NCBI GenBank assembly: GCA_958296135.2
Contig: CATQHZ020000001.1
Coordinates: forward strand, 3,392,001 to 3,456,000
Direction: 5' to 3'
Origin: an uncultured Poribacteria bacterium
GTDB lineage: Bacteria > Poribacteria > WGA-4E > WGA-3G
Length of the DNA: 64,000 nucleotides
Shown piece after piece: positions 1 to 64,000 of the stretch (position 1 is the first letter of the stretch; the number at the start of each line of letters is the position of its first letter). Under the pieces are notes generated by a model. The model saw only the letters and a list, made by a program, of their open reading frames with translations. It did not search any database and had not been told where the DNA came from. The position numbers and the translations under genes were made by a program.

Positions 1-1494
1 TCTTACGCAGGTTCTATCCTCGCGACAGCAGCCCTCGGTGTCGCCGCTGTTGCCGCAAAGGAGCACGATAACCTCGCGCTCCAACTCAAATACCTCTCAG
101 CACCGATGATTATCGCGGGGATTGGCGTGCTCCTCTCAATCCTGGGCATCTACATGGTGCGGACGAAAGAAGGCGCATCAATGAAGCAGTTGATGAGTTC
201 GCTGAACCTCGGCATTAACGGGAGCGCGCTCGGCATCGCGCTTTTGTCCATTCCTGTGTTGCTCTACCTCGATTTGCCCAACAAATGGCAGATTTGGGGC
301 GCGATTGTCACCGGGCTCGCCGCCGGCCTGATTATCGGCAAAGTCACGGAAGTGTTCACTTCTCACGATTATGCGCCGACGCGCGCCATCGCGAAGCAGG
401 CGAAAACCGGACCCGCCACCGTAATCATTGAAGGCATCGCGGTGGGAATGGAATCTACCGCCATTCCGGTTCTGACGATTATCGCCGCGGTGGCCATCAG
501 TTATTATCTCCCCGGCGGTACAAGCGCGCCATTGATGGGACTCTACGGTGTCGGCATCGCCGCAGTCGGCATGCTCGCAACGCTCGGTATCACGTTGGCA
601 ACCGATGCCTACGGCCCCATCGCGGACAATGCGGGTGGAAACGCCGAAATGTCTGAATTGGAAAAGAGCGTTCGAGAACGCACTGACCAGCTCGATGCAC
701 TCGGAAACACGACAGCTGCAACAGGAAAAGGGTTTGCCATCGGCTCGGCGGCACTCACCGCACTCGCGCTTTTGGCTGCTTACCTCGAAGAGATACGATA
801 CGGCCTGAAACACCTCGCGGGCATGGATACACTGACTATCCCCGGTGAAGGCAGCATTGATACACTGAAGGTGACAATCAACCAATTCATGGTATACTAC
901 AACGTCACGCTGATGAATCCCCAAGTACTGATCGGGCTGTTTATCGGCGCGGTGATGGCGTTCTATTTCTGCGCGCTCACGATGAAGGCAGTCGGCCGAG
1001 CAGCAGGAGCCATGGTAGAAGAAGTTCGCCGCCAACTCCGAGAGAAACCAGGCATCATGAAGCGCGAAGAGAAGCCGGATTACGCGCGATGCGTTGAAAT
1101 CTCAACCGCCGGGGCGCAACGGGAAATGATTTTTCCCTCGCTCCTCGCGATTATTGTTCCTGTTGCTGTCGGCTTAATTTTTAATGTCGCCGGGGTGCTA
1201 GGACTCCTCGCAGGCGGGTTAGCCAGCGGATTCGTGTTGGCTGTCATGATGGCGAATGCAGGCGGCGCATGGGACAACGCCAAAAAGTTCATCGAACAAG
1301 GCGCACACGGCGGCAAAAACTCCGAGGAACACAAAGCCACCGTTGTAGGCGATACCGTCGGCGATCCGTTCAAAGACACCGCCGGGCCCTCGCTGAATAT
1401 CTTGATTAAGTTGATGTCAATGGTTTCCGTGGTGTTTGCAGGCCTCATCGCCAAATATGGCGGCGCAGTCAGCGGATGGTTGGGCATGCAATAA
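1..1494 (+). CDS. hppA: Membrane-bound ion-translocating pyrophosphatase (K+-dependent type), 5'-partial
   Basis: Frame is open from base 1 (SYAGSILAT...). Motifs DAYGPIADNAGG, LDALGNTTAATGKGFAIGS, GGAWDNAKK, GDTVGDPFKDTAGPS. GNTTAA rather than GNTTKA marks the K+-dependent class. Confidence 0.95.
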   Translation, partial: SYAGSILATAALGVAAVAAKEHDNLALQLKYLSAPMIIAGIGVLLSILGIYMVRTKEGASMKQLMSSLNLGINGSALGIALLSIPVLLYLDLPNKWQIWGAIVTGLAAGLIIGKVTEVFTSHDYAPTRAIAKQAKTGPATVIIEGIAVGMESTAIPVLTIIAAVAISYYLPGGTSAPLMGLYGVGIAAVGMLATLGITLATDAYGPIADNAGGNAEMSELEKSVRERTDQLDALGNTTAATGKGFAIGSAALTALALLAAYLEEIRYGLKHLAGMDTLTIPGEGSIDTLKVTINQFMVYYNVTLMNPQVLIGLFIGAVMAFYFCALTMKAVGRAAGAMVEEVRRQLREKPGIMKREEKPDYARCVEISTAGAQREMIFPSLLAIIVPVAVGLIFNVAGVLGLLAGGLASGFVLAVMMANAGGAWDNAKKFIEQGAHGGKNSEEHKATVVGDTVGDPFKDTAGPSLNILIKLMSMVSVVFAGLIAKYGGAVSGWLGMQ

Positions 1495-5937: not shown

Positions 5938-7314
5938 ATGGATGCGATAACACAAGCCCACTACAACCTCGGCACCGCTTACCTGAACGAGAAGCAGTAT
6001 ACTGAAGCGATTGCCGCGTTTCAAAAGGCGATAGAGACAGATACCGATTTTGCGGAAGCACATGGACAACTCGGAATCGCCTATTTTGAATTGGACAGGT
6101 TTGACGAAGCAGGAACAGCAGCGAAGGAGGCCATCAGGCTGAATCCGAACTATCAGCCCGCGCTCAAACTTTTAGACGCTCTCAAACAAGAACATTACGA
6201 CAATGGGCTCGCTCTCCTCACCGAAGAAGGATACGATGGCGCAATCGCAGAATTCAAAGCGGCGATAGAAATCGACCCGGGGCTCATCGAAGCACACCAC
6301 GCACTAGGACTCGCTTATCTCGCAATAGGCAAACTGGAAATGGCGAAAGAGAGGGCCGAAGAAGCGTTAAGGCTCGACGCGGAATATGAACCTGCCCAGG
6401 CTCTTTTGGATGCCATCAAGCCAGCACCAATACCTCCGGTGGAAGCAAAACTGCAAGCACCGCCCCCGGAAGCAAACGAGGAAGAGGAAGAGCAAACGTC
6501 CCCAACGGAGGTAACTCAGGAAGCAGCGCCGCAAGCACCGTCGTCACTGAAAACCACGCAGGGCTCGCCGGAAAAAGAGAAGCATTATGAGCAGGGAATT
6601 GCTTTTCTAAACAACGGACAATCTGAACACGCGATTGCCGCGTTCAAAAGCGCGAAAAACCTTGATGCGAATTATCGGGATGCACACTACGGGCTTGGCC
6701 TCGCCTATCTGAGAGTTGGTGCCTTGGACATCGCGGAAGAAGCGGCCGAGGAAGCACTCCGAATCGATTCCAACTTTTTGCCCGCGCATCAACTTTTGGA
6801 TTCAATTGATTTCCAAAATACGCAGGCGAGAAAGCGGAGACGTTGGCGGAAAGTCGCGGTGGCTGTCGGTATCGTCGGGATAGCACTCATCGCTTTCGGC
6901 GCATTTCAACTGGGCTTCTTAAATGCATGGCTGAAACCCGCGCCACCGCCGAAGTTGGCCATCACTAAAGTCGCCTTAAATGAACACTCGGGGAACGGCT
7001 TCCTTGATGCAAACGAAAGTGGACGCATTCTGATAACCATCCAGAATAACGGCGGTGATGTCAGAAACGTCCAGGTGAAACTGGACCCGAGTCATCGCGC
7101 TGGCTTACGCTACAAACCCGTCTTAACACTCCAACAACTGGGTGGAAACAGCGAGCAGACTCTCACAATCCCGATTTCCGCCGAGGGGAGTATTCAGGGG
7201 CAAACCGTGAAATTGAACATCAACGTGATGGACAAGAATGGCATGCCGCTCGTATCTGAAGCCTTTTCTTTCAAAACGCAACCTTTGCCGCTTTCACCGC
7301 TGCCGGTTCGATAA
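5938..7314 (+). CDS. TPR-repeat membrane protein with C-terminal Ig/CARDB-like domain
   Basis: Three TPR blocks (AHYNLG..Y, AH..LGLAY), Pro/Glu linker, RKRRR followed by one TM helix, then a beta-rich domain (GNGFLDANESG.I.ITIQNNG). Confidence 0.85.
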   Translation: MDAITQAHYNLGTAYLNEKQYTEAIAAFQKAIETDTDFAEAHGQLGIAYFELDRFDEAGTAAKEAIRLNPNYQPALKLLDALKQEHYDNGLALLTEEGYDGAIAEFKAAIEIDPGLIEAHHALGLAYLAIGKLEMAKERAEEALRLDAEYEPAQALLDAIKPAPIPPVEAKLQAPPPEANEEEEEQTSPTEVTQEAAPQAPSSLKTTQGSPEKEKHYEQGIAFLNNGQSEHAIAAFKSAKNLDANYRDAHYGLGLAYLRVGALDIAEEAAEEALRIDSNFLPAHQLLDSIDFQNTQARKRRRWRKVAVAVGIVGIALIAFGAFQLGFLNAWLKPAPPPKLAITKVALNEHSGNGFLDANESGRILITIQNNGGDVRNVQVKLDPSHRAGLRYKPVLTLQQLGGNSEQTLTIPISAEGSIQGQTVKLNINVMDKNGMPLVSEAFSFKTQPLPLSPLPVR

Positions 7315-7332: not shown

Positions 7333-9504
7333 ATGAATTCAAGAATATGGGGAATTATTGGGGGCGTGGCTTTGGTGCTCGCGCTCCTCTCACCCCTCGT
7401 GTTAGGCAGCTCCAAAAAGGTCGAGCGGCTCTTTGAGGATGCTGAAAAGTTGTATCAGCGCGCGAATTACAAAGACGCAATCGGCAAATATCGCGACGCA
7501 CTCAGCGCATCGAAAAAGTTCGGCGTGAACACCGAACGGATTGACGGGGATTTCACCACACTTGTCAACTATAAAATCGCGCGCTGTTATTATGAGCTCG
7601 CGCAACAATCGGGCAACATCAATCACTACGCGACCGCGCTCAGCCACGTGAAAGCGGTTTTTCCAAACGCAGATGTTGTCAAGCATCGAGAAGAACTAAC
7701 CTACCTCTGGGCACAGATTCTCCGCGCGACAGAACAGGTTGAGTCAGCAAAAGCGAAGTTCGCCTCACTGATCGAAAACTTTCCAAATAGCCGCTATATT
7801 GGGAATGCACGGCAAGCACTTGAGGATATGAACGCTGATAATCCAAATCCACCCCCTGTGCCGCCTGAATGGCTCGAGGACGCGCAAGATTTACTGGATG
7901 CGGAAGACTATGAGGCAGCATATCAGGCATTTGATAAGGCTGTTAACGACGAAAATCTTCAGAACCGACCCGAAATTCGGGCGGAGGCGATGTTCAAAGC
8001 CGCCTACTGTTTGGCTCAACTCAGCCGAAACAGCGAGGCACTTGACTACTATTCAGAACTTATCAAGAAATTTCCCGAAAACAGTAGTTACGTCACCAAG
8101 GCTTATGTCAACAAAGGGCAGATTTACGCTGCCCAAAGGGACTACGTCAACGCGCGCGAAAACTATGAAGCCGCCATGTCTGCCACGGAAGACCAGGGCC
8201 GGAAGGCAGAAATTTATGAGATTTATCATCAGACTTATCTCGTTCCAATGCGAGTGCGCACGCTCGCCAACATTGAAGAAAGGGAGTGGGAACAGAAACG
8301 TTCTGAGAAAGCGGCCGAAAAATACGCACGCCTCATCAACGCGAATAGGTTATGGGGAGAAAGACAATTCCTTGAAGCAGCCAAGGAATACGAAGCATTC
8401 GCAGCCGAACGACCGGCTGACACAGAAGTGCCTTACGCCATTTATCAAAGCGGCAGATGCTATTACCTCGCCGCTTTTGAAAAGGCGGAGCCATTTGGAA
8501 AGGCTGTCACTGTCTTCCAAAAACTCATCGATGCCTATCGGGACAGCGAATATGCTATTAAAGCTTACCACGGCATAGCATTAGTTTACCGCAATTGGGC
8601 GCAGAAACACGGCGATGACTCCAAATGGTGGCTCGCCATCAAAACGGTAGAGACAGCAAACGAAAAATACGCGGGCACTGAGAATGAGATAGTCAGGGAA
8701 ATCCTCGGCCGTATGAAGCCAATCAAAGATAGCGCGCTCGCCTATTTAGGCACGATGGCGAAATCCAAGGCACAAGTCGCAATTGAGAAAGCAGAGAAGG
8801 ACATCCAACGCGCGAACAAACGCAATACACAGAAGCATGCCGCTGCTTTAATGCAGGAATCGGTAAAGCTGCTTACGCATGCGAAGACAGCACTCGGAAC
8901 TGCGAATTACGATTACGCTTTTAACTTAGCTGAAGAGGCATCGAAAAAAGCGCGCGAGGCAGTCAATAAGGCACGCATCGCGGAAAACCGGCAGAGTACC
9001 TACGCCCTCAAAGAGAATTACGTCTATGAAGGACACGAGGCTCTGGAAAAAGGCGCGCTTGTCACAGCGGAAAAGAAGGCGCGGCAGGCGTTGAAAATCG
9101 ATCGGAACTCTCGCGCCGCCCACCGACTTTTGAACGCGATAAAGCAGACATACTACGGTGAAGGACTGGCGTTCCTTGACGACAACCGGTATCCCCAAGC
9201 CATAACCGCGTTTGAGAACGCTGCAAGAATTGACAGGAGTTTCGCAAAAGCGCACTGCAATCTCGGAGTTGTCTACATTGAGCAGAACCAAGCGGCCAAG
9301 GCGATTGCTCCGCTTAAAAAGGCTATAGAAGCGGACGCGAATTTTAAGGAAGCGCACTTTAACCTCAGCATCGCTTACATGCGCCTTGGCCGATTTGAAT
9401 TGGCGCGCAACACGGCAGAAATTGTCGTGGCTCTTTGCGGAACCTCTCGGAAAGAACCGGTCTGCGAAGCCGCCAAAATGCTTTTGAAGTCTATTGCCGA
9501 TTAA
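7333..9504 (+). CDS. N-terminally anchored TPR protein (BamD/YbgF-like repeats)
   Basis: N-terminal hydrophobic segment; LIENFPNSRY, LIKKFPENSSY and AHCNLGVVY TPR motifs; AAGGAGG RBS. Confidence 0.85.
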   Translation: MNSRIWGIIGGVALVLALLSPLVLGSSKKVERLFEDAEKLYQRANYKDAIGKYRDALSASKKFGVNTERIDGDFTTLVNYKIARCYYELAQQSGNINHYATALSHVKAVFPNADVVKHREELTYLWAQILRATEQVESAKAKFASLIENFPNSRYIGNARQALEDMNADNPNPPPVPPEWLEDAQDLLDAEDYEAAYQAFDKAVNDENLQNRPEIRAEAMFKAAYCLAQLSRNSEALDYYSELIKKFPENSSYVTKAYVNKGQIYAAQRDYVNARENYEAAMSATEDQGRKAEIYEIYHQTYLVPMRVRTLANIEEREWEQKRSEKAAEKYARLINANRLWGERQFLEAAKEYEAFAAERPADTEVPYAIYQSGRCYYLAAFEKAEPFGKAVTVFQKLIDAYRDSEYAIKAYHGIALVYRNWAQKHGDDSKWWLAIKTVETANEKYAGTENEIVREILGRMKPIKDSALAYLGTMAKSKAQVAIEKAEKDIQRANKRNTQKHAAALMQESVKLLTHAKTALGTANYDYAFNLAEEASKKAREAVNKARIAENRQSTYALKENYVYEGHEALEKGALVTAEKKARQALKIDRNSRAAHRLLNAIKQTYYGEGLAFLDDNRYPQAITAFENAARIDRSFAKAHCNLGVVYIEQNQAAKAIAPLKKAIEADANFKEAHFNLSIAYMRLGRFELARNTAEIVVALCGTSRKEPVCEAAKMLLKSIAD

Positions 9505-55829: not shown

Positions 55830-57541
55830 TTACGCGCCCGCAATTTGATGGATGCTATAGGGCAGTTGACAGAACGTGATGCCCATCGGAGTCAAGTCCT
55901 TCTGACTGAGGAACTTGTGTGCCGCATAGACGAACGCCTTCTTCCCCGCCGCCTTGCACTGCGTAGCAATCTGCACTGCACGCGTCCCGTCTAACGCCGA
56001 AGCATCGCTCTCCAAAAATTCAAGCCTCGGTTCGTAGATGAGATAGAAACGGAGCGTCTCGGTTTCCCCGAAAAAATAGTCGGCTCGTCGCGCGATAACG
56101 TCAAGCGCGCTGCCTGTCGCAACGTAAGCGATATAATTCGCCAAAGTCTCGTAAGAGGGCATCGTCTCGCCGGAGAGCATGCCTTCCTCGTCAATGGGTT
56201 CGCCCAGTTCACAATAGGTGAAAGAGCCGCCGAGGCCTTGCCGCAGTGCCTCGTTCTTGGCGGTATCCACACCGTTGATGACGCGCCGAACGCGCTCAGC
56301 GGTGATACTATCGGCGTAATCTTCGCACTCAATGAGGATGAACTTGCGGTTGCCGCCATCTTCTCTGTTGCGCGCGAGCACGGCGTGCGCCGTGGTGCCG
56401 CTGCCAGCGAAGGAGTCAAGTATGATATCATCTTGCTCTGTGACAAGCCCAACCAGGTCCTTGAGCAACTGAACAGGCTTCGGATAGTCAAAGGCTCTAC
56501 CGCCGAACACCTGCTTCAATTCAGCAGTTCCGTTTCCGCTGCTATATTCGGGTTTGTAAAGCAGTGACTTCGGCTTTTTCGTTGGCAATTCCCCTAGCGC
56601 GGGCCTCTGCTTCTTCCGCAGTCGGATCCCAGAGGGTGTCCTCTCAACAATGAGGTTGTGGGACTCGTTAAGGACTTTCTGCTTGCTCCACCGCCAATGC
56701 ACTTCTGCGCCAGCGGTAATCGGTAATACCTTTTCATAATTCTGGGTTTCGGGGCCTTCAACTACCGACAATTCATTCTTCTTGCTAACAAAGATCGGAT
56801 AGAACAAATTAGGTCTCTCGCTCCTTGGGGCACTTGCACCCGTGGCTTTCAGTTCGGCACCTTTTTTGTAGTACCCATAATCGTCTTGCAGCCATGACGC
56901 GAGTTCCTCCTCTTCCATGTCAAACTCGCTGATTTGAGCAAGAGCCCGATTTTTCGCCCAAGCGAGAGTGTACTCATGTGTCCCTGCGAATCCGAATTCG
57001 TTGTTGTTACCCTTGAGATTCATAACGGTCGGCAAGCAAGCGATAAAATGCACTTCACCGAAAATCTCATTCATAACTTGGCGTAAATGATGCACCTCAT
57101 TGTCATCAATAGAAATGAAAATCACGCCATCGTCGGAAAGCAGCTCGTGCAACAGATGGAGCCGCGGCCACATCATGCACAGCCACTTATCGTGACGCTC
57201 TAAATCCTCGACATCAATCGGCGAGTTTCCCGCCAGCCACCGTCGCATGAGTGGGCTGTTGACGTTATCGTTGTAAACCCAGTTTTCGTTGCCGGTGTTA
57301 TAGGGCGGATCGATGTAGACGCACTTGATTTTCCCCGCGTATTTCGGGAGGAGTGCCTTGAGCGCATGCAGGTTATCGCCGTGAATGATGAGGTTCTCAT
57401 CCAACGAGGGCTGGTTTACCCCCCCCCTTCAAAATTTACATTTTTTAAGGATTTGGCTGCATCTACTTCCAGCGTGCGAAACGGCACGGTAAGGTGATAG
57501 GAATAGATGAATTGTTTGCCTCTGAAATCGAGTGTGGGCAT
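55830..57541 (-). pseudogene. mod: Type III R-M adenine methyltransferase (Mod), frameshifted at a G9 tract; no res gene
   Basis: AAGGAG RBS then MPTLDFRGK... at 57541 reads GAA GGG GGG GGG TAA. One extra G joins it to ...PSLDENLIIHGDNL; IDPPY and FAGSGTT motifs are intact. Confidence 0.88.
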
Positions 57542-57574
57542 GCGACTCCTTATGAAAATGATGGCATTGCGGTA

Positions 57575-57603
57575 ATTTTAGCATTATCTCCGGGATTTGG
57601 CAA
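57575..57603 (-). promoter_or_regulatory. Sigma70-like promoter for mod
   Basis: Minus strand TTGCCA-N17-TAAAAT with extended TG. Confidence 0.55.
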
Positions 57604-57640
57604 GCAAAATTTCCGAGATTCTCTCATCACAGCCTGTCTC

Positions 57641-58726
57641 CTAGGATTCAACGTAGCGAGTCATAGGGCCCCGGCTTTCAATCTCCGGCTGTCCTTGCCG
57701 TGCATAGAACGAAGAAAATCGGGCAACGATATCTTTTACGAAAGGAGGCGAGATTTGAATGCAGGGTTTTCCAAATCTCTTGGAAAATTCGTCCTTGCTC
57801 AGAGCTTGCAGTTTCCTGAAGTTGAGAAACCCACCATCAAAAAAACTAGTTTTTGGTAGCCAATGATAGTAAGTTGTGTAATTGTTACCAAAAACAGTCC
57901 GAAGTTTGTCTCTCTTCTTGCCTTTGTTCCTAATTTCATTCAACGCAGTGCTTACAATGTCATTTTCTCTTTCGATCTCAACGAGGAGAATACGATCCGT
58001 CTTGAAGTCACCGTTTTTTCTAAGCACAAGGTCGCAAGCTGGACTCAGAACGGTGAACCACTTATCATCAGCTGTCACAATGCTTCCTGTCGTAATCCTA
58101 TCCAATATCGGAGGAAATAGGTATACCTCTTCGGGAAACACTTGTTCAGGAAAGGAGCGTTCTCCCTCTTCCTCAAGAAGCTGTAGCAAATGGTTCAACG
58201 TGTATCGCAGGAGAGCTTTTTCGGTTCGTTCCGAATTTTCTTTTTCGTAGGATATCCACGTTTCCCGTTGCGGCAGGAGATTTTTGAGAAAGACTTCACT
58301 CAGCGTCTTCTCAATAATGCCTCGCCCTCCCATAATCCGAGTGAGGCCTGTGTTAAATATCTCCTGAAACAACAGAAGATCCGACTCGTACGTTCTATCG
58401 CCCCGGCTATACATCTTGATCACTGACGAATGATCTGCCACCAAATCAACAGAATAGCCAGTCACAAAGATAATGGGGATTCTGGTAAACGGATCGCCTA
58501 GTTGGCGAACGATCTCATTTCCGGCATCCTCATCATTTCCTAGCCTCAAATCGATAATTGCCCTATCATAAGAGCCGTCGATTTTTTTCAACGCGCACGA
58601 AGCACTTTCAGCTATCTCATATTCGACATTCAGAGGGTACTTGGCATTGAAGATTTTAACAGAGTCTTTAAATGCCTCTTGTTGCTTTTCGTCGTCTTCA
58701 ACGAGCAGAATTTTCATTGTATTCAT
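57641..58726 (-). CDS. Response regulator: receiver plus uncharacterised C-terminal domain (SPACDL)
   Basis: ILLVEDD, IIDL.L, IFVTG; C-terminal TG.I...VLSPACDL...FSSFYARQG; overlaps the kinase stop. Confidence 0.85.
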   Translation of the reverse strand: MNTMKILLVEDDEKQQEAFKDSVKIFNAKYPLNVEYEIAESASCALKKIDGSYDRAIIDLRLGNDEDAGNEIVRQLGDPFTRIPIIFVTGYSVDLVADHSSVIKMYSRGDRTYESDLLLFQEIFNTGLTRIMGGRGIIEKTLSEVFLKNLLPQRETWISYEKENSERTEKALLRYTLNHLLQLLEEEGERSFPEQVFPEEVYLFPPILDRITTGSIVTADDKWFTVLSPACDLVLRKNGDFKTDRILLVEIERENDIVSTALNEIRNKGKKRDKLRTVFGNNYTTYYHWLPKTSFFDGGFLNFRKLQALSKDEFSKRFGKPCIQISPPFVKDIVARFSSFYARQGQPEIESRGPMTRYVES

Positions 58727-60894
58727 TTCTCTTCCTCCATTTTCGGGTGGAGTCTGAAATGCGCACCCTTTTCAGATTCCAAGACTTTCAGTTTAAGCCC
58801 GTTTCGTTCCGCGGCTTCACCAGCTATCGCCAATCCCAAACCCGTTCCGTCTGGTTTAGTAGAAAAATGGGGCTCAAAGATTACTTCACTTTCAATGTGA
58901 TTTGGTTCAATTCCTGGGCCGGTGTCGCGATAGTCAATATGAATCAAGGAATCTCCTACCGTCAAGAGTTCAATGCGGATTTTCCTCTTGGGCACATTTT
59001 TCTCACGCATCCAATAAAGGCTATTATCAACAAGATTCGTGAAAATCGCATAGATATCCTGATGCCACGCGGAAAATCTAAAACCGCAAGGATCTATAAC
59101 CTCAGCAGATACATTGTGAGTCTCCATTTCGTTTTCAAAAACGGAAAGCGTGCCCTCTATCGTTTTCTTCAAATCCAACAGCTTCTTGGTGGTGCGTTTT
59201 TTCGCGGCTAGCGGGTCAAGTCTGCGGAAGAGCTCTACGAAGAGCACCGCATTCTGCCATAAGCCATCGGTAATTGAAAGAATTTCTCCAAGATTCGCCG
59301 GATCCTCGGTTTCCAAGAATATTTCAGACCAGTACTTAAGGTTCGGTATCTGGTTGCGGAAGTATCCAAGTGGGTGCCTGCCTTCATGAAGAATAACATT
59401 GATGATTTTCCCGAGGGTGGCCTGCCCTTGATAAATAGCAACAGCTTTGCGGATTTCATCAGCAGCCTTGTTTTTATCTTCCTCGTCTTGATCGATAATG
59501 TCAATAATTTTGTCAGCGGTTATTTTGTCGACCGAGCCCTTGGCGAGCTGCATACGGACGCTCCGTTTCATCTCTTCAAACGAAAAAAGCTGTTGCAGAT
59601 CTCGCTCCACTTTGATAGCAGGACGGCTCAAGCCGGCCTTTTTTCTATAATCAAAACGCCGCCATTCAAGTTCTGTTATGACTTCTGTTGTGACTTCTTT
59701 CAGCCGATCGTAAGCCGGATTTTCCTTGAGTCCGTCCCGAGCACTCTTCTCGATTAAACCAGATTGATTTTCCGGCTCAATACCCACAAACCCAATCACT
59801 TGGTTGCTGCTGATGCGCTGTGTAGGATTATTGACACGTCGGCTATCCAATTTCATCCAATCAAAGCCAGCATCCCCTAGCGGTCTAATACGGAATCCGT
59901 TCCGATAAACACCGACACCGTTGTAGGCATTCAGAGACTGCCTGGCCTGGAGTTTTCCGACATAGTTACCGGATTCATCCTTGAGACCCCGCCGGATTAG
60001 GGACTCAATGGCCTCCTTTTCACGATCGTAGACTCGGATATCAATGTCAAGTTCACCACAGCCTGTTGGGGCCGTAGTGAACTTAATCTTTTCTTCCGGT
60101 ATGTTGCGAGCTTTCTGTGAGGAATAAGTCAGCGTGCCTTTACCGTCAGCATTGATGTGCCCGGAGATTTTGTAGTCAAAGAAATCGAAAAGCGGATAGG
60201 GCTCAATAGTTTCCTCAATGTTCTTCGCATCCGGAAAGCCATCAACCGTTAAATTGATACGGAATTCGTCACCGCCGTGTCTATTGCTGAGAGAAGAAAT
60301 CGCCGGTGACTTCAGTTTCTTCAATTCTAACTGAAGTTTTTTGAAGCGTTCCTGATTCCATTCAGCAAGAAGTTCACTACCTCCGTGTATCGTGAGCCGC
60401 GTTCCCTGCATTTCAGAGACATTCTCTGTTTCAACGAGAATTTCCACATCATCCAGATACTGCGCAGACTCAAAACTACTCCACTCAAGATAGAGCGTTG
60501 TTTTCTCTCCTTCAGGAGTGACTGTTTCAAGAAGCAAATCTGTGCCGAGAACAGATGCGGCATAGCGACCTACACCTTTACTTCCCTGCAATTTTCTTCC
60601 CAGAGGACTTCTAACCCTTTCACGCTTGTCTAAGGTCGATGGCACCATCCATTTGTTGATGACATCGTCCCTAGACATGCCATGTCCGTGATCGGAAATG
60701 ACGACAGTATAACCACTACCATCGGCAGAGGCTTTGAATGCTATGTCGACATCAGGAGAATCGGCATCATAAGCATTTTTCACCAACTCAACAACAGCCG
60801 CATAATTGTCTTGAATCAGATCGCGGCCGATAGTGAAAATGTGCCGTCCTGCAGGCCGAATGGTATAGGTTGTGTCAGGCTTCATGATTACCAA
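58723..60894 (-). CDS. MORC/MutL-type GHKL ATPase fused to a histidine kinase
   Basis: N-terminal ELVKNAYDAD, DHGHGM, GSKGVGR; VYRNGFRIRP; H-box LHEGRHP, NLVDNS, DTGPGI, FSTKPDGTGLGL. Confidence 0.88.
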   Translation of the reverse strand: MVIMKPDTTYTIRPAGRHIFTIGRDLIQDNYAAVVELVKNAYDADSPDVDIAFKASADGSGYTVVISDHGHGMSRDDVINKWMVPSTLDKRERVRSPLGRKLQGSKGVGRYAASVLGTDLLLETVTPEGEKTTLYLEWSSFESAQYLDDVEILVETENVSEMQGTRLTIHGGSELLAEWNQERFKKLQLELKKLKSPAISSLSNRHGGDEFRINLTVDGFPDAKNIEETIEPYPLFDFFDYKISGHINADGKGTLTYSSQKARNIPEEKIKFTTAPTGCGELDIDIRVYDREKEAIESLIRRGLKDESGNYVGKLQARQSLNAYNGVGVYRNGFRIRPLGDAGFDWMKLDSRRVNNPTQRISSNQVIGFVGIEPENQSGLIEKSARDGLKENPAYDRLKEVTTEVITELEWRRFDYRKKAGLSRPAIKVERDLQQLFSFEEMKRSVRMQLAKGSVDKITADKIIDIIDQDEEDKNKAADEIRKAVAIYQGQATLGKIINVILHEGRHPLGYFRNQIPNLKYWSEIFLETEDPANLGEILSITDGLWQNAVLFVELFRRLDPLAAKKRTTKKLLDLKKTIEGTLSVFENEMETHNVSAEVIDPCGFRFSAWHQDIYAIFTNLVDNSLYWMREKNVPKRKIRIELLTVGDSLIHIDYRDTGPGIEPNHIESEVIFEPHFSTKPDGTGLGLAIAGEAAERNGLKLKVLESEKGAHFRLHPKMEEEK

Positions 60895-62147
60895 TTCTCC
60901 CGCAATTTTTCCGCGATTTTTTGGGCAAGAATCACGGGAACTGCATTCCCAATTTGACGGTAAGCCGGTGTCCGATAAGGTTTGCCACTCTCGCTCTCGA
61001 AGTAATAGTCATCAGGAAATGTCTGCAGCCTCGCCGCTTCCCTCGGAGTGAGAGAACGATTCTGCTTAATATCCGGATGAATATAATAGTGGCCATCCAT
61101 CGCAATATGGGCGACGACGGTATGCGAGAACGGCAAATCTCCAGCGACAACCTTGAATCGGTTCACGAACGTTTCTCGGTTACGATGCGTTTTCAGTTCG
61201 TCAGGAAGATCGGTATATTTAAGGCGAACCTGTCCATCTTCCCAAAGGGTTACCGCTCTTCTATAAATCTCAAGATCGCGTTCGTTGTTGTAACGCGCCT
61301 GATGCAATGTCACCGGAAGTCCATCGTTTCGTATCCCTGCACCATATAACCATGCACTCTCACATGAATTCAGATCGCAAGGTCCTGCATCCCCTTCGCC
61401 GGCTTTGATAGGCGGCAAGTCCGAGAGAATGTCTTTCACGAAAATCTCTGGCGGACACATCTGTGGCTCTGGGTAGAAGCCACTTGATGTTCCTTTCTTG
61501 CCTACAAGAATAACTCTTTTTCGGCTTTGAGGCACCCCATAATCGTTCGCGGATAGCACCTTGCATTCGGTTTCATAACCTGCATCGCGGAATACAGATT
61601 GCATGCGGGATAAATAGGAATTCCCCTCTTCATCCTTGGCAGAACAAAGGCCCGGCACATTCTCAAACACGAAATACGCAGGCTCGTATCTTTTCAAGAA
61701 CTCAGCATAGAAAAGATATAGAGTATTCCGCTTATCTCCTTTCATCCGGTTCTGAGAACGCGCGCGGCCGATAACCGAATAGGTTTGACAAGGCGGCCCT
61801 CCAATAATCAGATCGAGTCTTTCGCCACCGAGTCGTTTATCAATTTGACAGAAAATATCCGTGAGGGTCGCCTCAGCAATTTCGTCGTTGATAACCGATT
61901 GGATGAGCTCTTCCGGAACCCGACTGTATAATTCAGAGCGACTCATCCGGTCTTCCAGATAAGCGGCATAGTGCTCTTCTTGACCTTCTCTCCTCAGCCA
62001 ATGATATGCCATCCGGGTACGGAGCGTAAAGCAAGCAGCCGCATCCATCTCCACATGCGCGATAGGGTGAAATCCGGCACGAATGAATCCTTCAGAAAGC
62101 CCGCCAGCACCGGCGAAAAGATCCAGAAAACTCAGTTCGCTGCTCAT
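60888..62147 (-). CDS. dcm: C5-cytosine DNA methyltransferase
   Basis: DLFAGAGG, GGPPCQ, ENVPG, QSRKRV, REAARLQTFP, QIGNAVP. Confidence 0.95.
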   Translation of the reverse strand: MSSELSFLDLFAGAGGLSEGFIRAGFHPIAHVEMDAAACFTLRTRMAYHWLRREGQEEHYAAYLEDRMSRSELYSRVPEELIQSVINDEIAEATLTDIFCQIDKRLGGERLDLIIGGPPCQTYSVIGRARSQNRMKGDKRNTLYLFYAEFLKRYEPAYFVFENVPGLCSAKDEEGNSYLSRMQSVFRDAGYETECKVLSANDYGVPQSRKRVILVGKKGTSSGFYPEPQMCPPEIFVKDILSDLPPIKAGEGDAGPCDLNSCESAWLYGAGIRNDGLPVTLHQARYNNERDLEIYRRAVTLWEDGQVRLKYTDLPDELKTHRNRETFVNRFKVVAGDLPFSHTVVAHIAMDGHYYIHPDIKQNRSLTPREAARLQTFPDDYYFESESGKPYRTPAYRQIGNAVPVILAQKIAEKLRENW

Positions 62148-62304
62148 AACAATTTACTCCAATTCGATGCATTTAGCACAATCTCGTTCAAACGCCGCCA
62201 AAATCAACCTGAATGAAGTCGTCTACGGCCATTCAGTTTTAAGTGGCTGTCCCGCGATAGCGAGGGCAGACGCTATATCCAATCCTCCGCGGTTTCAGAA
62301 CAAA

Positions 62305-62753
62305 GAAACTCGCCAGAATTGCAGTGTCGATTTTCAAGGAAACCTCAACCCTGCAAGTTGACTGCCGCTGTCTTTGGGTTACGTGCTTGGCCGCTCACAA
62401 GTCCGTGCGTACCTCCTTACCAAATCCGATGCGATGTGTGAATCCAAGTGCCTCGGTAATCCGAGTGCCGCCTAACACATGCCGACGGTGCCACGAACCC
62501 GTGCACCTCACACAACGCATTTACCTCATGGATGAACTCTCTGAAGTTGCAACGTCAAGTCTCCACTCTCGTGCGTTGCAAGTTGACTGCCTCCGTCACT
62601 GAGCTACGTGTTTGGATGCACGCACAAACAGCGCGTCATCCCTTACCTAAAACGATGCGGTGTGTGATTTCATGCACCTTGATAGCCCGAGTGTAACCTA
62701 GCGTAGGTTTCCGACGTTTCCACGAACCGGCGCGATTCACACAACGCATTTAC
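62305..62753 (+). ncRNA. Tandem pair of ~225-bp structured non-coding units, family unknown
   Basis: Shared blocks gcaagttgactgcc (62353 and 62578), tacgtg, cttacc, cgatgcgNtgtgtga, ccgagtg, ccgacg, ccacgaacc, tcacacaacgcatttac; stems are conserved with compensatory changes. Strand inferred from G-U pairs. Confidence 0.55.
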
Positions 62754-62896
62754 TAACGACAAGAACGATTCAGTTCTCCCCGGGAGGAGAGCCCCCCGGG
62801 TCTTGATGGGTACGGTATCGGGATACGGATGTCCCGCCCACCGGTGAAAATGGCGTTCGCACTAAAACTGAATGTCTCTGACCTAACGACACACTA

Positions 62897-62925
62897 ATTA
62901 TACCACAAAATTAAGCGCAAGTCTA
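62897..62925 (-). promoter_or_regulatory. Sigma70-like promoter pointing toward the repeats and dcm
   Basis: Minus strand TAGACT-N17-TATAAT with extended TG. Confidence 0.5.
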
Positions 62926-63100
62926 AAAAAACGTTTTAGCACAAATGCTATCGACAACGTCTTACATAGAATACCACAAAAAACAAAAATTTGCAAACAA
63001 AATTCGGAAAGCCTTCAAAGTCGGTTCACCAATCGGCTTGGACTCAAATGTTCATTAAGGCGAGGGACAGCTCCTCGCCCTACAGTGATATGAACATCAC

Positions 63101-64000
63101 TTAATGAATAATCTTAACACTCAACAGCGGACTATCCTGCTCAAACAACTTACCGTTAATCGTCGCAGTGCCACGGAAAGTAAACGTGTAGGTACCCGGC
63201 TCTAAAGAACCAAGTGCCTGCAACGGTACCTTGACTTCGGTTTCGTTCGCCGGGAGCGTCGCGACGGAAGTGGTGATACCTTCCGGTAAATCCATCGGCG
63301 TAAGCGTGACAGCATCCGTAAAACCGCCTTGCCGCACTACCGTCAACGTCAACATCGCCTCCTTTGACAGCACAGTGTCGCTCGTATCCTCTGGCGCATT
63401 AGCAATCGCCACGGTGTCGTTTTTAACGCTGAGGCCGGAGGGTTCTCCTGCAATCGCTGTCTTTTTGGGAAAAACGATGCTAAAACGCAACGGCTCTACC
63501 GTCACGATGAAAGGTGCCTCGACGATAGTCAGCGGGATACCCGGCGTGGATTGCTTCACCGGCACGCTGTTGATAGTCGCCGTTCCTGTAACCGAAATAG
63601 AGCTAGTGCCGGGCGTTGGCACAACAGAGAACTGCTCTCTTCGCTCAAAACTCCCGGCTTTAATGGTGAGCATCGCTTCGGTTGCGCCTTCCGCGAGCGT
63701 CACAGGCGCAGCGGTAACACGGTTCGGCAGCCCAACTACGGATAATGCAATCGGACCGGCAAAGCCGCCCCTGCGGTTCGCACTTACGTGAATGTCAACG
63801 GATTTGTTGTGGACAACGCTTAAGCCTATCTCGGCCAACGTCAACGTGAATTGCGGCGCGCCCATCACCGTGAGCAGAATCGGATCCGGCGCAGCGGTAC
63901 GTTCTATCTGTTGATTACCAACAGCACAGACTCCGACAATCGAGAGCGGCATGAGCCCAAGCGGCGCATCCCACGGCGCAGTTACCGTGAGCAACACCCG
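63101..64000 (-). CDS. C-terminal part of a large protein with repeated Ig-like domains (5'-partial)
   Basis: Repeats R.GGF.G.I.LSV.GLP..VT and RQGGFTDAVTLT..DLPEGIT; the ORF runs off the window. Confidence 0.75.
   Translation of the reverse strand, partial: RVLLTVTAPWDAPLGLMPLSIVGVCAVGNQQIERTAAPDPILLTVMGAPQFTLTLAEIGLSVVHNKSVDIHVSANRRGGFAGPIALSVVGLPNRVTAAPVTLAEGATEAMLTIKAGSFERREQFSVVPTPGTSSISVTGTATINSVPVKQSTPGIPLTIVEAPFIVTVEPLRFSIVFPKKTAIAGEPSGLSVKNDTVAIANAPEDTSDTVLSKEAMLTLTVVRQGGFTDAVTLTPMDLPEGITTSVATLPANETEVKVPLQALGSLEPGTYTFTFRGTATINGKLFEQDSPLLSVKIIH

Follow-up and report, generated by a model that had tools for sequence, protein, structure and literature searches.

A tandem, predicted structured 5′ leader from a multi-copy family that stands ahead of unrelated defence operons in an uncultured Poribacteria lineage

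The locus upstream of dcm

The window analysed here is a stretch of 64,000 nucleotides (nt) from an uncultured Poribacteria bacterium (assembly GCA_958296135.2, contig CATQHZ020000001.1, positions 3,392,001 to 3,456,000), and its subject is a pair of diverged units that stand in tandem ahead of dcm, a gene for a C5 cytosine DNA methyltransferase. On the minus strand, on which dcm also lies, the promoter-proximal unit 2 (62526-62755, ~230 nt) comes first and the gene-proximal unit 1 (62298-62525, ~228 nt) follows. Both belong to a family of leader copies which in this genome and a close relative precede, at most of their loci, genes of mutually unrelated defence systems.

A global alignment of the two units gives 161 identical columns of 240 (67.1%) and a score of 68, far above the −145 ± 16 (maximum −90) obtained from 300 shuffles, and a repeat search finds three direct-repeat blocks of 60, 48 and 43 nt, with 73-84% identity and a spacing of 225-229 nt; the two tandem, diverged units described in a first-pass annotation of this DNA are thus borne out. 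Tandem Repeats Finder called no tandem repeat on the stretch, because the two copies are too diverged. Each unit also contains a pair of 13-nt inverted repeats, ATGCG(A/G)TGTGTGA / TCACACAACGCAT (I4 in unit 1, I5 in unit 2). At the orthologous locus of another genome (L033) the first unit is 87.8% identical to unit 2 and the second 84.3% identical to unit 1, whereas the two units inside one genome share 67-74%; since the counterparts are more alike than the neighbours, the duplication in the window would be older than the split from the L033 genome.

None of the four open reading frames (ORFs) that overlap the units has a Pfam match at E ≤ 0.1, and L033 carries a different set of ORFs across its units. 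Therefore the tandem repeat is real and non-coding, in agreement with the earlier statement that no convincing ORF is present, and a decayed coding sequence, which would have undone the idea of a structured RNA, was found neither by Pfam nor by the comparison of ORFs with L033 and is rejected. A scan of the stretch for tRNA and tmRNA found neither.

Two promoter-like sites can be read on the minus strand upstream of unit 2. The distal one (TTGCAA, 17 nt, TG-extended TATTCT; 62968-62996) was read from the sequence, with 8 of 12 matches, under the cut-off of the scan; the proximal one (TAGACT, 17 nt, TG-extended TATAAT; 62897-62925) has 10 of 12 matches, is kept in L033, and is the only minus-strand promoter-like site above the cut-off in 62050-63150. 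Between the promoters and unit 2 lies a 129-nt insertion (62753-62881) that resembles a miniature inverted-repeat transposable element (MITE), flanked by the direct repeat GTCGTTAG and containing the inverted repeats CATTCAG../..CTGAATC as well as a CCCGGGG palindrome. This insertion stands outside the leader family and shows a target duplication, unlike the leader units; it is missing in L033, and a contig from a sponge metagenome (run X5) joins 62751 to 62881.

The spacer between the leader and dcm (62206-62269, minus strand) holds a palindrome of the repetitive extragenic palindromic (REP) type at 62247-62269 and a hairpin (I10) with arms at 62230-62239 and 62206-62215, followed by GAUUUUGG; the hairpin (62206-62239) is kept in L033 with a longer stem, and it failed the terminator scan. 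An attenuator was considered, in which a 5′ arm at 62863-62874 would pair with 62230-62241 in competition with this local hairpin and its U-run, and it was dropped because the 5′ arm lies within the 129-nt insertion, missing in L033 and in the run X5 contig. The 12-nt long-range inverted repeat (I3) depends on the same insertion and so does not count among the conserved elements of the leader. This genome abounds in REP-like palindromes of the type CGCGAGGGACAGGCCCTCGCG, a single 20-mer occurring in about 99 copies, and another such palindrome stands at 63055-63085, just past the promoters. Outside the window there is a perfect 98-nt tandem repeat (G000:C1:679659-680059; 4.1 copies, 100% identity) of unassigned nature; a rough, non-rigorous k-mer scan of the genome, which saw this repeat and the REP-like ones, found no CRISPR array.

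Downstream, dcm (60888-62147, minus strand; Pfam DNA_methylase, 1.7e-58) is the first gene of its operon, with a ribosome-binding site and a start at 62147, and the rest of the co-oriented cluster (55830-60894, minus strand) encodes proteins of 723, 361 and 524 aa. The first of these has two GHKL ATPase domains, an N-terminal HATPase_c_3 (MORC-like, 8e-17) and a C-terminal HATPase_c (7.7e-21); the second has a weak Response_reg match, at 23.5 bits against a Pfam cut-off of 30.2; and the third is an N6/N4 methyltransferase (N6_N4_Mtase, 3.6e-32; PADLOC MTase_III, 5.6e-147) resembling a type III Mod protein. Judging by these domain matches, what had been called a “Dcm-kinase module” (55830-62147) looks more like a defence cluster than like a two-component system.

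Structure and polarity of the units

Read from 5′ to 3′ on the minus strand, a unit consists of an outer stem, a domain D1, an optional hairpin D2, and the domains D3 and D4. The outer stem (AUGCGUUGUGUGA / UCACACAUCGCAU) is restricted to window-type units, with arms at 62737-62749 and 62655-62667 in unit 2 (I5) and at 62508-62520 and 62429-62441 in unit 1 (I4). These 13-nt stems, atgcgNtgtgtga/tcacacaacgcat, had been proposed to close a multiloop, and as stems they hold good, being 92% complementary and recurring in related copies. Covariance models were built for the two best-conserved domains, R1 for D4 and R2 for D1. In unit 2 these place D1 at 62678-62736 (R2, 39.7 bits) and D4 at 62526-62611 (R1, 78.9 bits), with the D3 hairpin located at 62614-62642 by the D3 alignment; in unit 1 D1 lies at 62452-62507 (R2, 48.5 bits) and D4 at 62298-62386 (R1, 73.9 bits), D3 being degenerate.

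D1 is formed by the helix GGGUUCG/CGGACCC, a conserved internal loop (UGAACG / ACU) and an inner hairpin. Its 34 distinct sequences are 90.1% paired and include 25 double-change cells, an invariant U.G pair is kept in 32 of 33 sequences, and RNAalifold calls the helix independently. The ctcgg-taat-ccgag hairpin noted earlier overlaps the 3′ strand of this conserved helix and would be at best an alternative pairing. The GC-rich hairpin D3, ACGCG..CGCGU, occurs in 28 of 33 copies, including unit 2, and has been lost in unit 1; it takes the place of the stem acgtg..(t/c)gcgt with its compensatory cttg/caag versus tttg/caaa, which is not the fold of the family.

D4 consists of three stacked helices, AACUC/GAGUU (P_a), GGAG/CUCC (P_b) and UUGCAG/CUGCAA (P_c), in the linear order AACUC, a loop of 6 nt, GGAG, a 9-nt bulge GCAGUCAAC, UUGCAG, a loop of 7-35 nt, CUGCAA, CUCC, 3-5 nt, GAGUU and UAUUCG, and it ends in a conserved U-rich tail, GAGUUUAUUCG. 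The bulge is invariant and the terminal loop variable, and P_c is the ttgca...tgcaa stem that the first-pass annotation had correctly drawn around a variable segment. Across 33 sequences, 96.2% of 494 cells are paired, 6 of them double changes; none of 500 shuffles matches the observed covariation score or percentage of pairing, and slid controls pair at 26-47%. A leader peptide within D4 (frame AUG GAG GCA GUC AAC) was tried and rejected, as other copies have ACG, GCG or GUG and the loop lengths are not multiples of 3.

The polarity of the RNA follows from its wobble pairs. Cells with G.U exceed those with A.C by 40 to 5 in D4 and by 81 to 12 in D1, and reading the plus strand instead lowers the pairing from 96.2% to 89.1% in D4 and from 90.1% to 72.6% in D1. 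This excess indicates that the RNA corresponds to the minus strand of the window, the reverse, family-wide, of the preference for the plus strand that had been drawn from the G-U pairs of the two units.

This polarity bears directly on the suggestion that the units are a guide-RNA array, or a scaffold like those of HEARO and omegaRNA, transcribed from the plus strand for a nuclease encoded elsewhere. The suggestion drew on a conserved scaffold around a variable segment, on the tandem units and on the motif GGCAGTCAA, and the resemblance extends to the size of a structured scaffold (150-250 nt) and, superficially, to the motifs GTTGAC and TTAC. However, the polarity is the opposite one and there is no terminal guide segment: what varies is a hairpin loop of 7-35 nt, which in unit 2 is identical in L033 and which between the Sacsin/TmtA loci differs by one letter. 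Rfam offers no match either, as positions 61800-63300 hit no family, HEARO included (at E ≤ 10 a single row appears, Afu_191, with E = 4 and 18.6 bits against a gathering threshold of 60), and 11 related loci (53,397 bases) gave nothing at E ≤ 1 in Rfam 15. There is no adjacent nuclease gene, no TnpB/IscB-type domain occurs among the 5 window and 42 neighbour proteins scanned, and an 801-nt region of the locus is without a match in the phage and plasmid collections. On this evidence a guide function is scarcely credible.

The family and the genes behind it

The window's own genome (G000; 5.19 Mb, 94.7% complete) was compared principally with two genomes of the same genus (G080 and G152) and one of another genus (G061). 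By BLAST and nhmmer it contains nine full copies (E ≤ 1.9e-41) and seven partial ones (E ≤ 3.4e-6), and in total 13 loci carry D1 and/or D4. Among 151 genomes of the phylum the D4 model has 11 matches in G000 and 15 in G080, a further one in G071 being false, inside coding sequence; the D1 model has 10 in G000, 17 in G080 and one in G061 (E 4.3e-8), and a weak, G+C-rich match in G132 was rejected. With laxer filters over 40 relatives of G061, D1 was found 17 times in G080, 11 times in G152 and twice in G061, and in none of the other 37 genomes. In one diverged copy in G061 (L074 1501-1740), D1 can still be recognised (43.6 bits), and a D4-like stretch retains GUAGUCAAC with different helix sequences; since R1 failed to detect this stretch, more distant relatives may be missed.

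Searches in wider collections add little to this distribution. The most conserved 19-mer occurs at 17 loci of the genome contig collection, ten of them in two Candidatus Poribacteria records that may overlap with the genomes G000-G152 and the remaining seven in unrelated DNA of other phyla, without the architecture of the family and in line with chance. Fourteen metagenome loci with the exact D4 motif proved to be no members, with 25 bits at best, compared with 45-88 bits for the 33 R1 matches in related loci (except L031, at 29 bits), and viral contigs contained the exact motif nowhere. Among the genomes searched, then, the family is confined to one genus plus one diverged copy in another.

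Within these genomes the copies are closely tied to promoters and to gene starts. A consensus match of the sigma-70 type (TTGNNN-16..18-TANNNT) lies no more than 90 nt upstream, on the RNA strand, in 32 of 35 D1 copies; the opposite strand offers one in 3 of 35 copies, and shuffles give 5.6 on average. The typical promoter of the family is TTGCAA, 17 nt and a TG-extended TAT(C/A/T)CT, and this hexamer type (TTGCAA-17-TGG-TAT(C/A/T)CT), to which the distal site of the window belongs, is found ahead of most copies. The three D1 copies without a near promoter include both window units, because unit 1 follows unit 2 and unit 2 is split from its promoter by the insertion. At all 23 loci of G000 and G080 with D4 (26 copies), a co-oriented ORF of at least 80 aa starts within ~250 nt of the proximal unit.

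These observations invite the question of whether the units could be RNA genes in themselves, either made from a promoter of their own or processed out of the leader, that act in trans or as an RNA component of the defence systems (sensor, decoy or cofactor). For this it may be said that each unit type has its own promoter, that the domains are modular and able to stand in tandem, with a promoter before each unit at the 3056k locus of G000, that D4 ends in the U-rich tail, that the long inverted repeats around some leaders could form a processing duplex, and that the placement relative to the ribosome-binding site is free. Against it, the units are not followed by any terminator-like site, a nearby gene starts in the same orientation at each of the 23 D4 loci, the partner proteins are unrelated, which makes a common RNA-protein complex unlikely, and the bracket of the window is not conserved, its 5′ arm lying in the genome-specific insertion. 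We regard such RNA genes as unlikely.

At a PADLOC threshold of E ≤ 1e-5, the first downstream gene has a match at 10 of the 13 loci of G000, one of them weak (LmuB, 3e-8); the classes are DrmMII-like, HerA, TmtA, PDC-S15 (twice), NsnB/AriA-like, CARF-HEPN Csx1, MTase_I, the weak LmuB and type IIG-like. Apart from dcm itself (DrmMII-like, 7.9e-164), the leaders of this genome stand ahead of an HSDR_N_2 protein followed by an XPB-type helicase and DUF790 (183k); HerA (1.9e-30), with a TGT/DpdA-like gene and a HepT-nucleotidyltransferase gene as partners (955k); TmtA (1.1e-103; 1512k); FRG-TPR proteins of the PDC-S15 class (2043k and 2049k, the former also with a BsaWI-type nuclease, a methyltransferase and an HNH gene); an HSDR_N protein and then a third FRG-TPR protein, again PDC-S15 (2047k); an AAA_15/21 ATPase (NsnB, 3.2e-44; 2757k); a CARF-HEPN protein of the Csx1/Csm6 type (1.4e-121; 2884k); a type I methyltransferase (1.2e-288), with PD-T7-4 and a specificity subunit (4458k); and a 359-aa protein with no assigned function (2045k). 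Four of these copies lie inside an array of FRG genes, within 7 kb of DNA (L039 5241-12105; G000:C1 2043-2050 kb): three directly precede a paralogous FRG-TPR gene (PDC-S15), or a short HSDR_N gene and then an FRG-TPR gene, and the fourth is a weak D1 match before the 359-aa unknown. The genes for the BsaWI-type nuclease, the methyltransferase and the HNH protein adjoin this group.

The picture is the same in G080, where a defence-like gene comes first behind D4 in 13 of 14 cases: FRG-TPR (twice), HATPase_c_3, GmrSD/Orf5, TmtA, PbeA, Sacsin/TmtA-like, SspD, AAA_15, HSDR_N-tubulin-like, PLD-SNF2, HSDR_N-N6_Mtase and a STAND NTPase. D1-only copies of that genome stand ahead of a Dsr1-like gene and also of TPR/Sel1-like genes and unknowns, and the diverged copy of G061 precedes a DruF-like gene.

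Being multi-copy and restricted to one lineage, in a genome rich in small repeats and with a true MITE-like insertion adjoining unit 2, the family might also be thought a selfish, MITE-like repeat with an outward promoter and no function for the host. But the units lack terminal inverted repeats and target duplications, they are old and diverged copies that keep their structure, their bias towards defence genes is strong, and, unlike MITE or REP elements, they show a fixed co-orientation with a nearby gene start at 23 of 23 D4 loci; we consider a purely selfish origin very unlikely.

The leader is modular. In G000 the copies at 4458k (type I methyltransferase gene) and 2884k (CARF-HEPN gene) have D1 only, and that at 2757k has D3 and D4 without D1; the G080 orthologue of the 4458k gene (L070) keeps D1, D3 and D4, which means that D4 has been lost at 4458k. 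Tandem pairs occur at only two loci of G000, the window, whose two units share one promoter region, and 3056k, with one promoter per unit. The latter (L042 6981-7410) represents a subtype with a near-identical D4 loop that recurs in G080 (L051, L057, L059) and that stands before a ParB_N/HTH_ParB pair in G000 and before genes for HATPase_c_3 and a PbeA-type helicase in G080, so that a module of promoter and leader appears to have been reshuffled between genes.

Two further loci or groups of loci deserve mention for their surroundings. At 2884k (L041 5370-7307; G000:C1 ~2882.4-2884.3 kb) the orphan CARF-HEPN gene, Csx1/Csm6-like, and its D1-only leader make up a 1.9-kb cargo between conserved flanks; in G080 these flanks enclose 6.4 kb of other DNA, and the site is therefore a variable hot spot. 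A conserved inverted repeat of 16-30 nt encloses the leaders of the Sacsin/TmtA type (L038, L061, L053, L069, L068, L055): AAAGTTTGGACAATTTGCA lies just past the −10 box and the complement just before the ribosome-binding site; in L038 the arms are at ~7236-7251 and 7444-7459 (G000:C1:1512235, 1512458). The motif is rare elsewhere in G000 (five matches at ≤ 2 mismatches), and the bracket could be an RNase III-type duplex, an operator pair or an invertible segment.

Such mobility raises the alternative that the element works as DNA, either as a portable promoter cassette or as an anchor of recombination or homology for the exchange of defence genes, its folds being incidental. One subtype with a near-identical loop before unrelated genes in G000 and G080, the 2884k copy at the edge of a cargo that is replaced in G080, the conservation of the promoter sequence together with the leader, and the four copies within 7 kb at the FRG array would all suit this explanation. 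It does not account for compensatory changes that keep the helices, nor for an excess of G.U over A.C that fits single-stranded RNA of one polarity; and copies that are 60-70% identical and still share the same loops and bulges are unlike recently moved DNA. Nothing similar turned up in the phage and plasmid collections, and the features of integron attC sites are absent: AGTCAAC is an unpaired bulge without a complementary partner and the copies follow promoters, no search for an integron integrase having been made. A function at the level of DNA is, in our estimation, quite unlikely.

A proposed regulatory tag and its place among known systems

The explanation we prefer, and consider narrowly probable, is that the window carries a tandem, structured, minus-strand 5′ leader of a multi-copy family, which has its own promoter, stands before unrelated defence operons, and acts in cis as a shared regulatory tag by way of a factor in trans. 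The tandem cis-regulator of the dcm island that the first-pass annotation had put forward among its options is thereby supported and widened, the leaders preceding many defence operons. Transcription would start at the promoters at ~62897-62996, cross unit 2 and then unit 1, and continue into the dcm operon; a common trans-acting factor, probably a protein specific to the lineage and less likely a small ligand or an RNA, would bind to D1 and D4 and set the elongation or stability of the transcript, which would bring the defence operons under joint control as a single regulon. Tandem copies would offer the factor more places to bind. A lineage-specific factor in trans is favoured because the domains are separable and multiplied, because conservation is highest in loops and bulges, because the spacing to promoter and start codon is free, and because the family belongs to one lineage.

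A ligand-sensing riboswitch is possible and less likely, since the domains are lost in a modular fashion and the range is narrow. A bolder proposal is that of a sensor RNA: some sign of phage attack, whether a small molecule, a product of the phage or an alarm factor of the host, would be recognised by D1 and/or D4, and this would turn on more than ten mechanistically unrelated defence systems together, the promoter and leader being passed between defence genes as a portable module; this we hold to be decidedly improbable, and if it were true, it would amount to an immune regulon at the level of RNA.

Several observations weigh against the preferred explanation of a shared cis-acting tag. Covariation among homologues, which had been proposed as a check, is present in D1 and D4, but the set behind it consists of paralogues drawn from three close relatives and a single outlier, which are not independent, and the alignments were fitted to models of the analysis's own making; in D4, moreover, 4 of 15 pairs vary on both sides, few because the helix sequences are highly conserved. 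Some genes behind the leader depart from the defence pattern: the ParB_N/HTH_ParB pair at 3056k has no PADLOC match, no ORF lies near the copy at 691k, the exception behind D4 in G080 is an LRR protein (L069), and Sel1/TPR-like genes (L099, L094) and a 141-aa unknown (L095) bear no defence signature. The distance from leader to start codon varies from 3 to 241 nt and insertions are tolerated on either side of the units, while 62050-63150 has no terminator-like site on either strand, and thus no expression platform was found. Promoters and transcript are predictions read from sequence, the factor in trans is postulated, and a module moved by recombination would also give the pattern of one subtype ahead of different genes.

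The control of the many defence systems of bacteria is poorly understood, and herein lies the interest of the family. If it is regulatory, the leader defines a defence regulon at the level of RNA, which in the same genomes would include restriction-modification, DISARM-like, Tiamat-like, HerA, CARF-HEPN, Ssp, GmrSD, Dsr1 and Druantia-like genes; it also offers a sequence tag for unannotated defence genes in uncultivated sponge symbionts, candidates being the genes without an assigned function at G000 2045k and L095 and the 530-aa partner of HerA, and its modular reshuffling bears on how moving defence genes carry their expression signals. The restriction to few genomes of an uncultured lineage limits generality and hampers experiments.

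As regards earlier descriptions, we presume that a “Poribacteria-1 RNA motif”, possibly of this phylum too, formed part of a 2017 survey of 224 candidate RNAs. In the available portion of the main text of that survey (PMC5737381) the word “Poribacteria” has no occurrence; the leader family, or part of it, may already figure in the supplements, and if Rfam 15 includes “Poribacteria-1”, its model gave no match at these loci. A limited collection of literature that was searched described neither “Poribacteria-1” nor an RNA leader common to defence systems, the regulators listed being proteins.

Among known systems, cis-regulatory 5′ leaders are close in form: they too lie between a promoter and a co-oriented gene of a functionally coherent set, with covarying helices and conserved loops, and sometimes in tandem, as is known for glycine and tandem T-box leaders. 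Unlike these, the present family has separable domains, occurs in one genus with a trace in another, yielded no terminator or platform sequestering the ribosome-binding site, and shares a role, defence, instead of a pathway or metabolite. Type III toxin-antitoxin loci have antitoxins made of tandem short repeats upstream of one family of endoribonuclease toxins. The units of 228-230 nt, with only two tandem loci in G000, most copies being single, and many downstream families unrelated to one another, differ from this, and the RNA antitoxin once suggested for the dcm island finds no support.

Comparable too are the leaders on which specialised NusG paralogues act, RfaH through JUMPStart/ops and LoaP through leader hairpins, where a short element recurs in many horizontally acquired operons of one class and works after initiation, independently of the distance to the start codon; JUMPStart/ops, however, is a 12-nt DNA signal, and here it is a structured RNA of ~200 nt that would be recognised. 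In G000 the domain PF02357 has a single match, an ordinary NusG, and control by a specialised paralogue is therefore not supported, although in a genome 94.7% complete a gene may be missing; the ANTAR domain (PF03861) has no match, likewise none in the control genomes. The put RNAs of phage HK022 and the EAR element are cis-acting antiterminator RNAs. Like them, the leader is a promoter-proximal RNA of several hairpins that could act on the polymerase regardless of the distance downstream; unlike them, it matches neither their sequence nor their models and has no terminators downstream within 62050-63150.

Finally, the idea of a defence regulon has its counterpart in protein regulators of defence islands of the BrxR/CapW type; to our knowledge, the regulators of defence known so far are DNA-binding proteins that act on one island. 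The protein RptR (PMC12255303) is a further regulator of defence. With BrxR/CapW and RptR the present case would have in common one regulator for several systems, but those are DNA-binding repressors with operators, whereas the element shared here is a predicted transcribed and structured RNA. In other words, what is new would be a leader of cis-regulatory type that tags a whole arsenal of unrelated defence operons.

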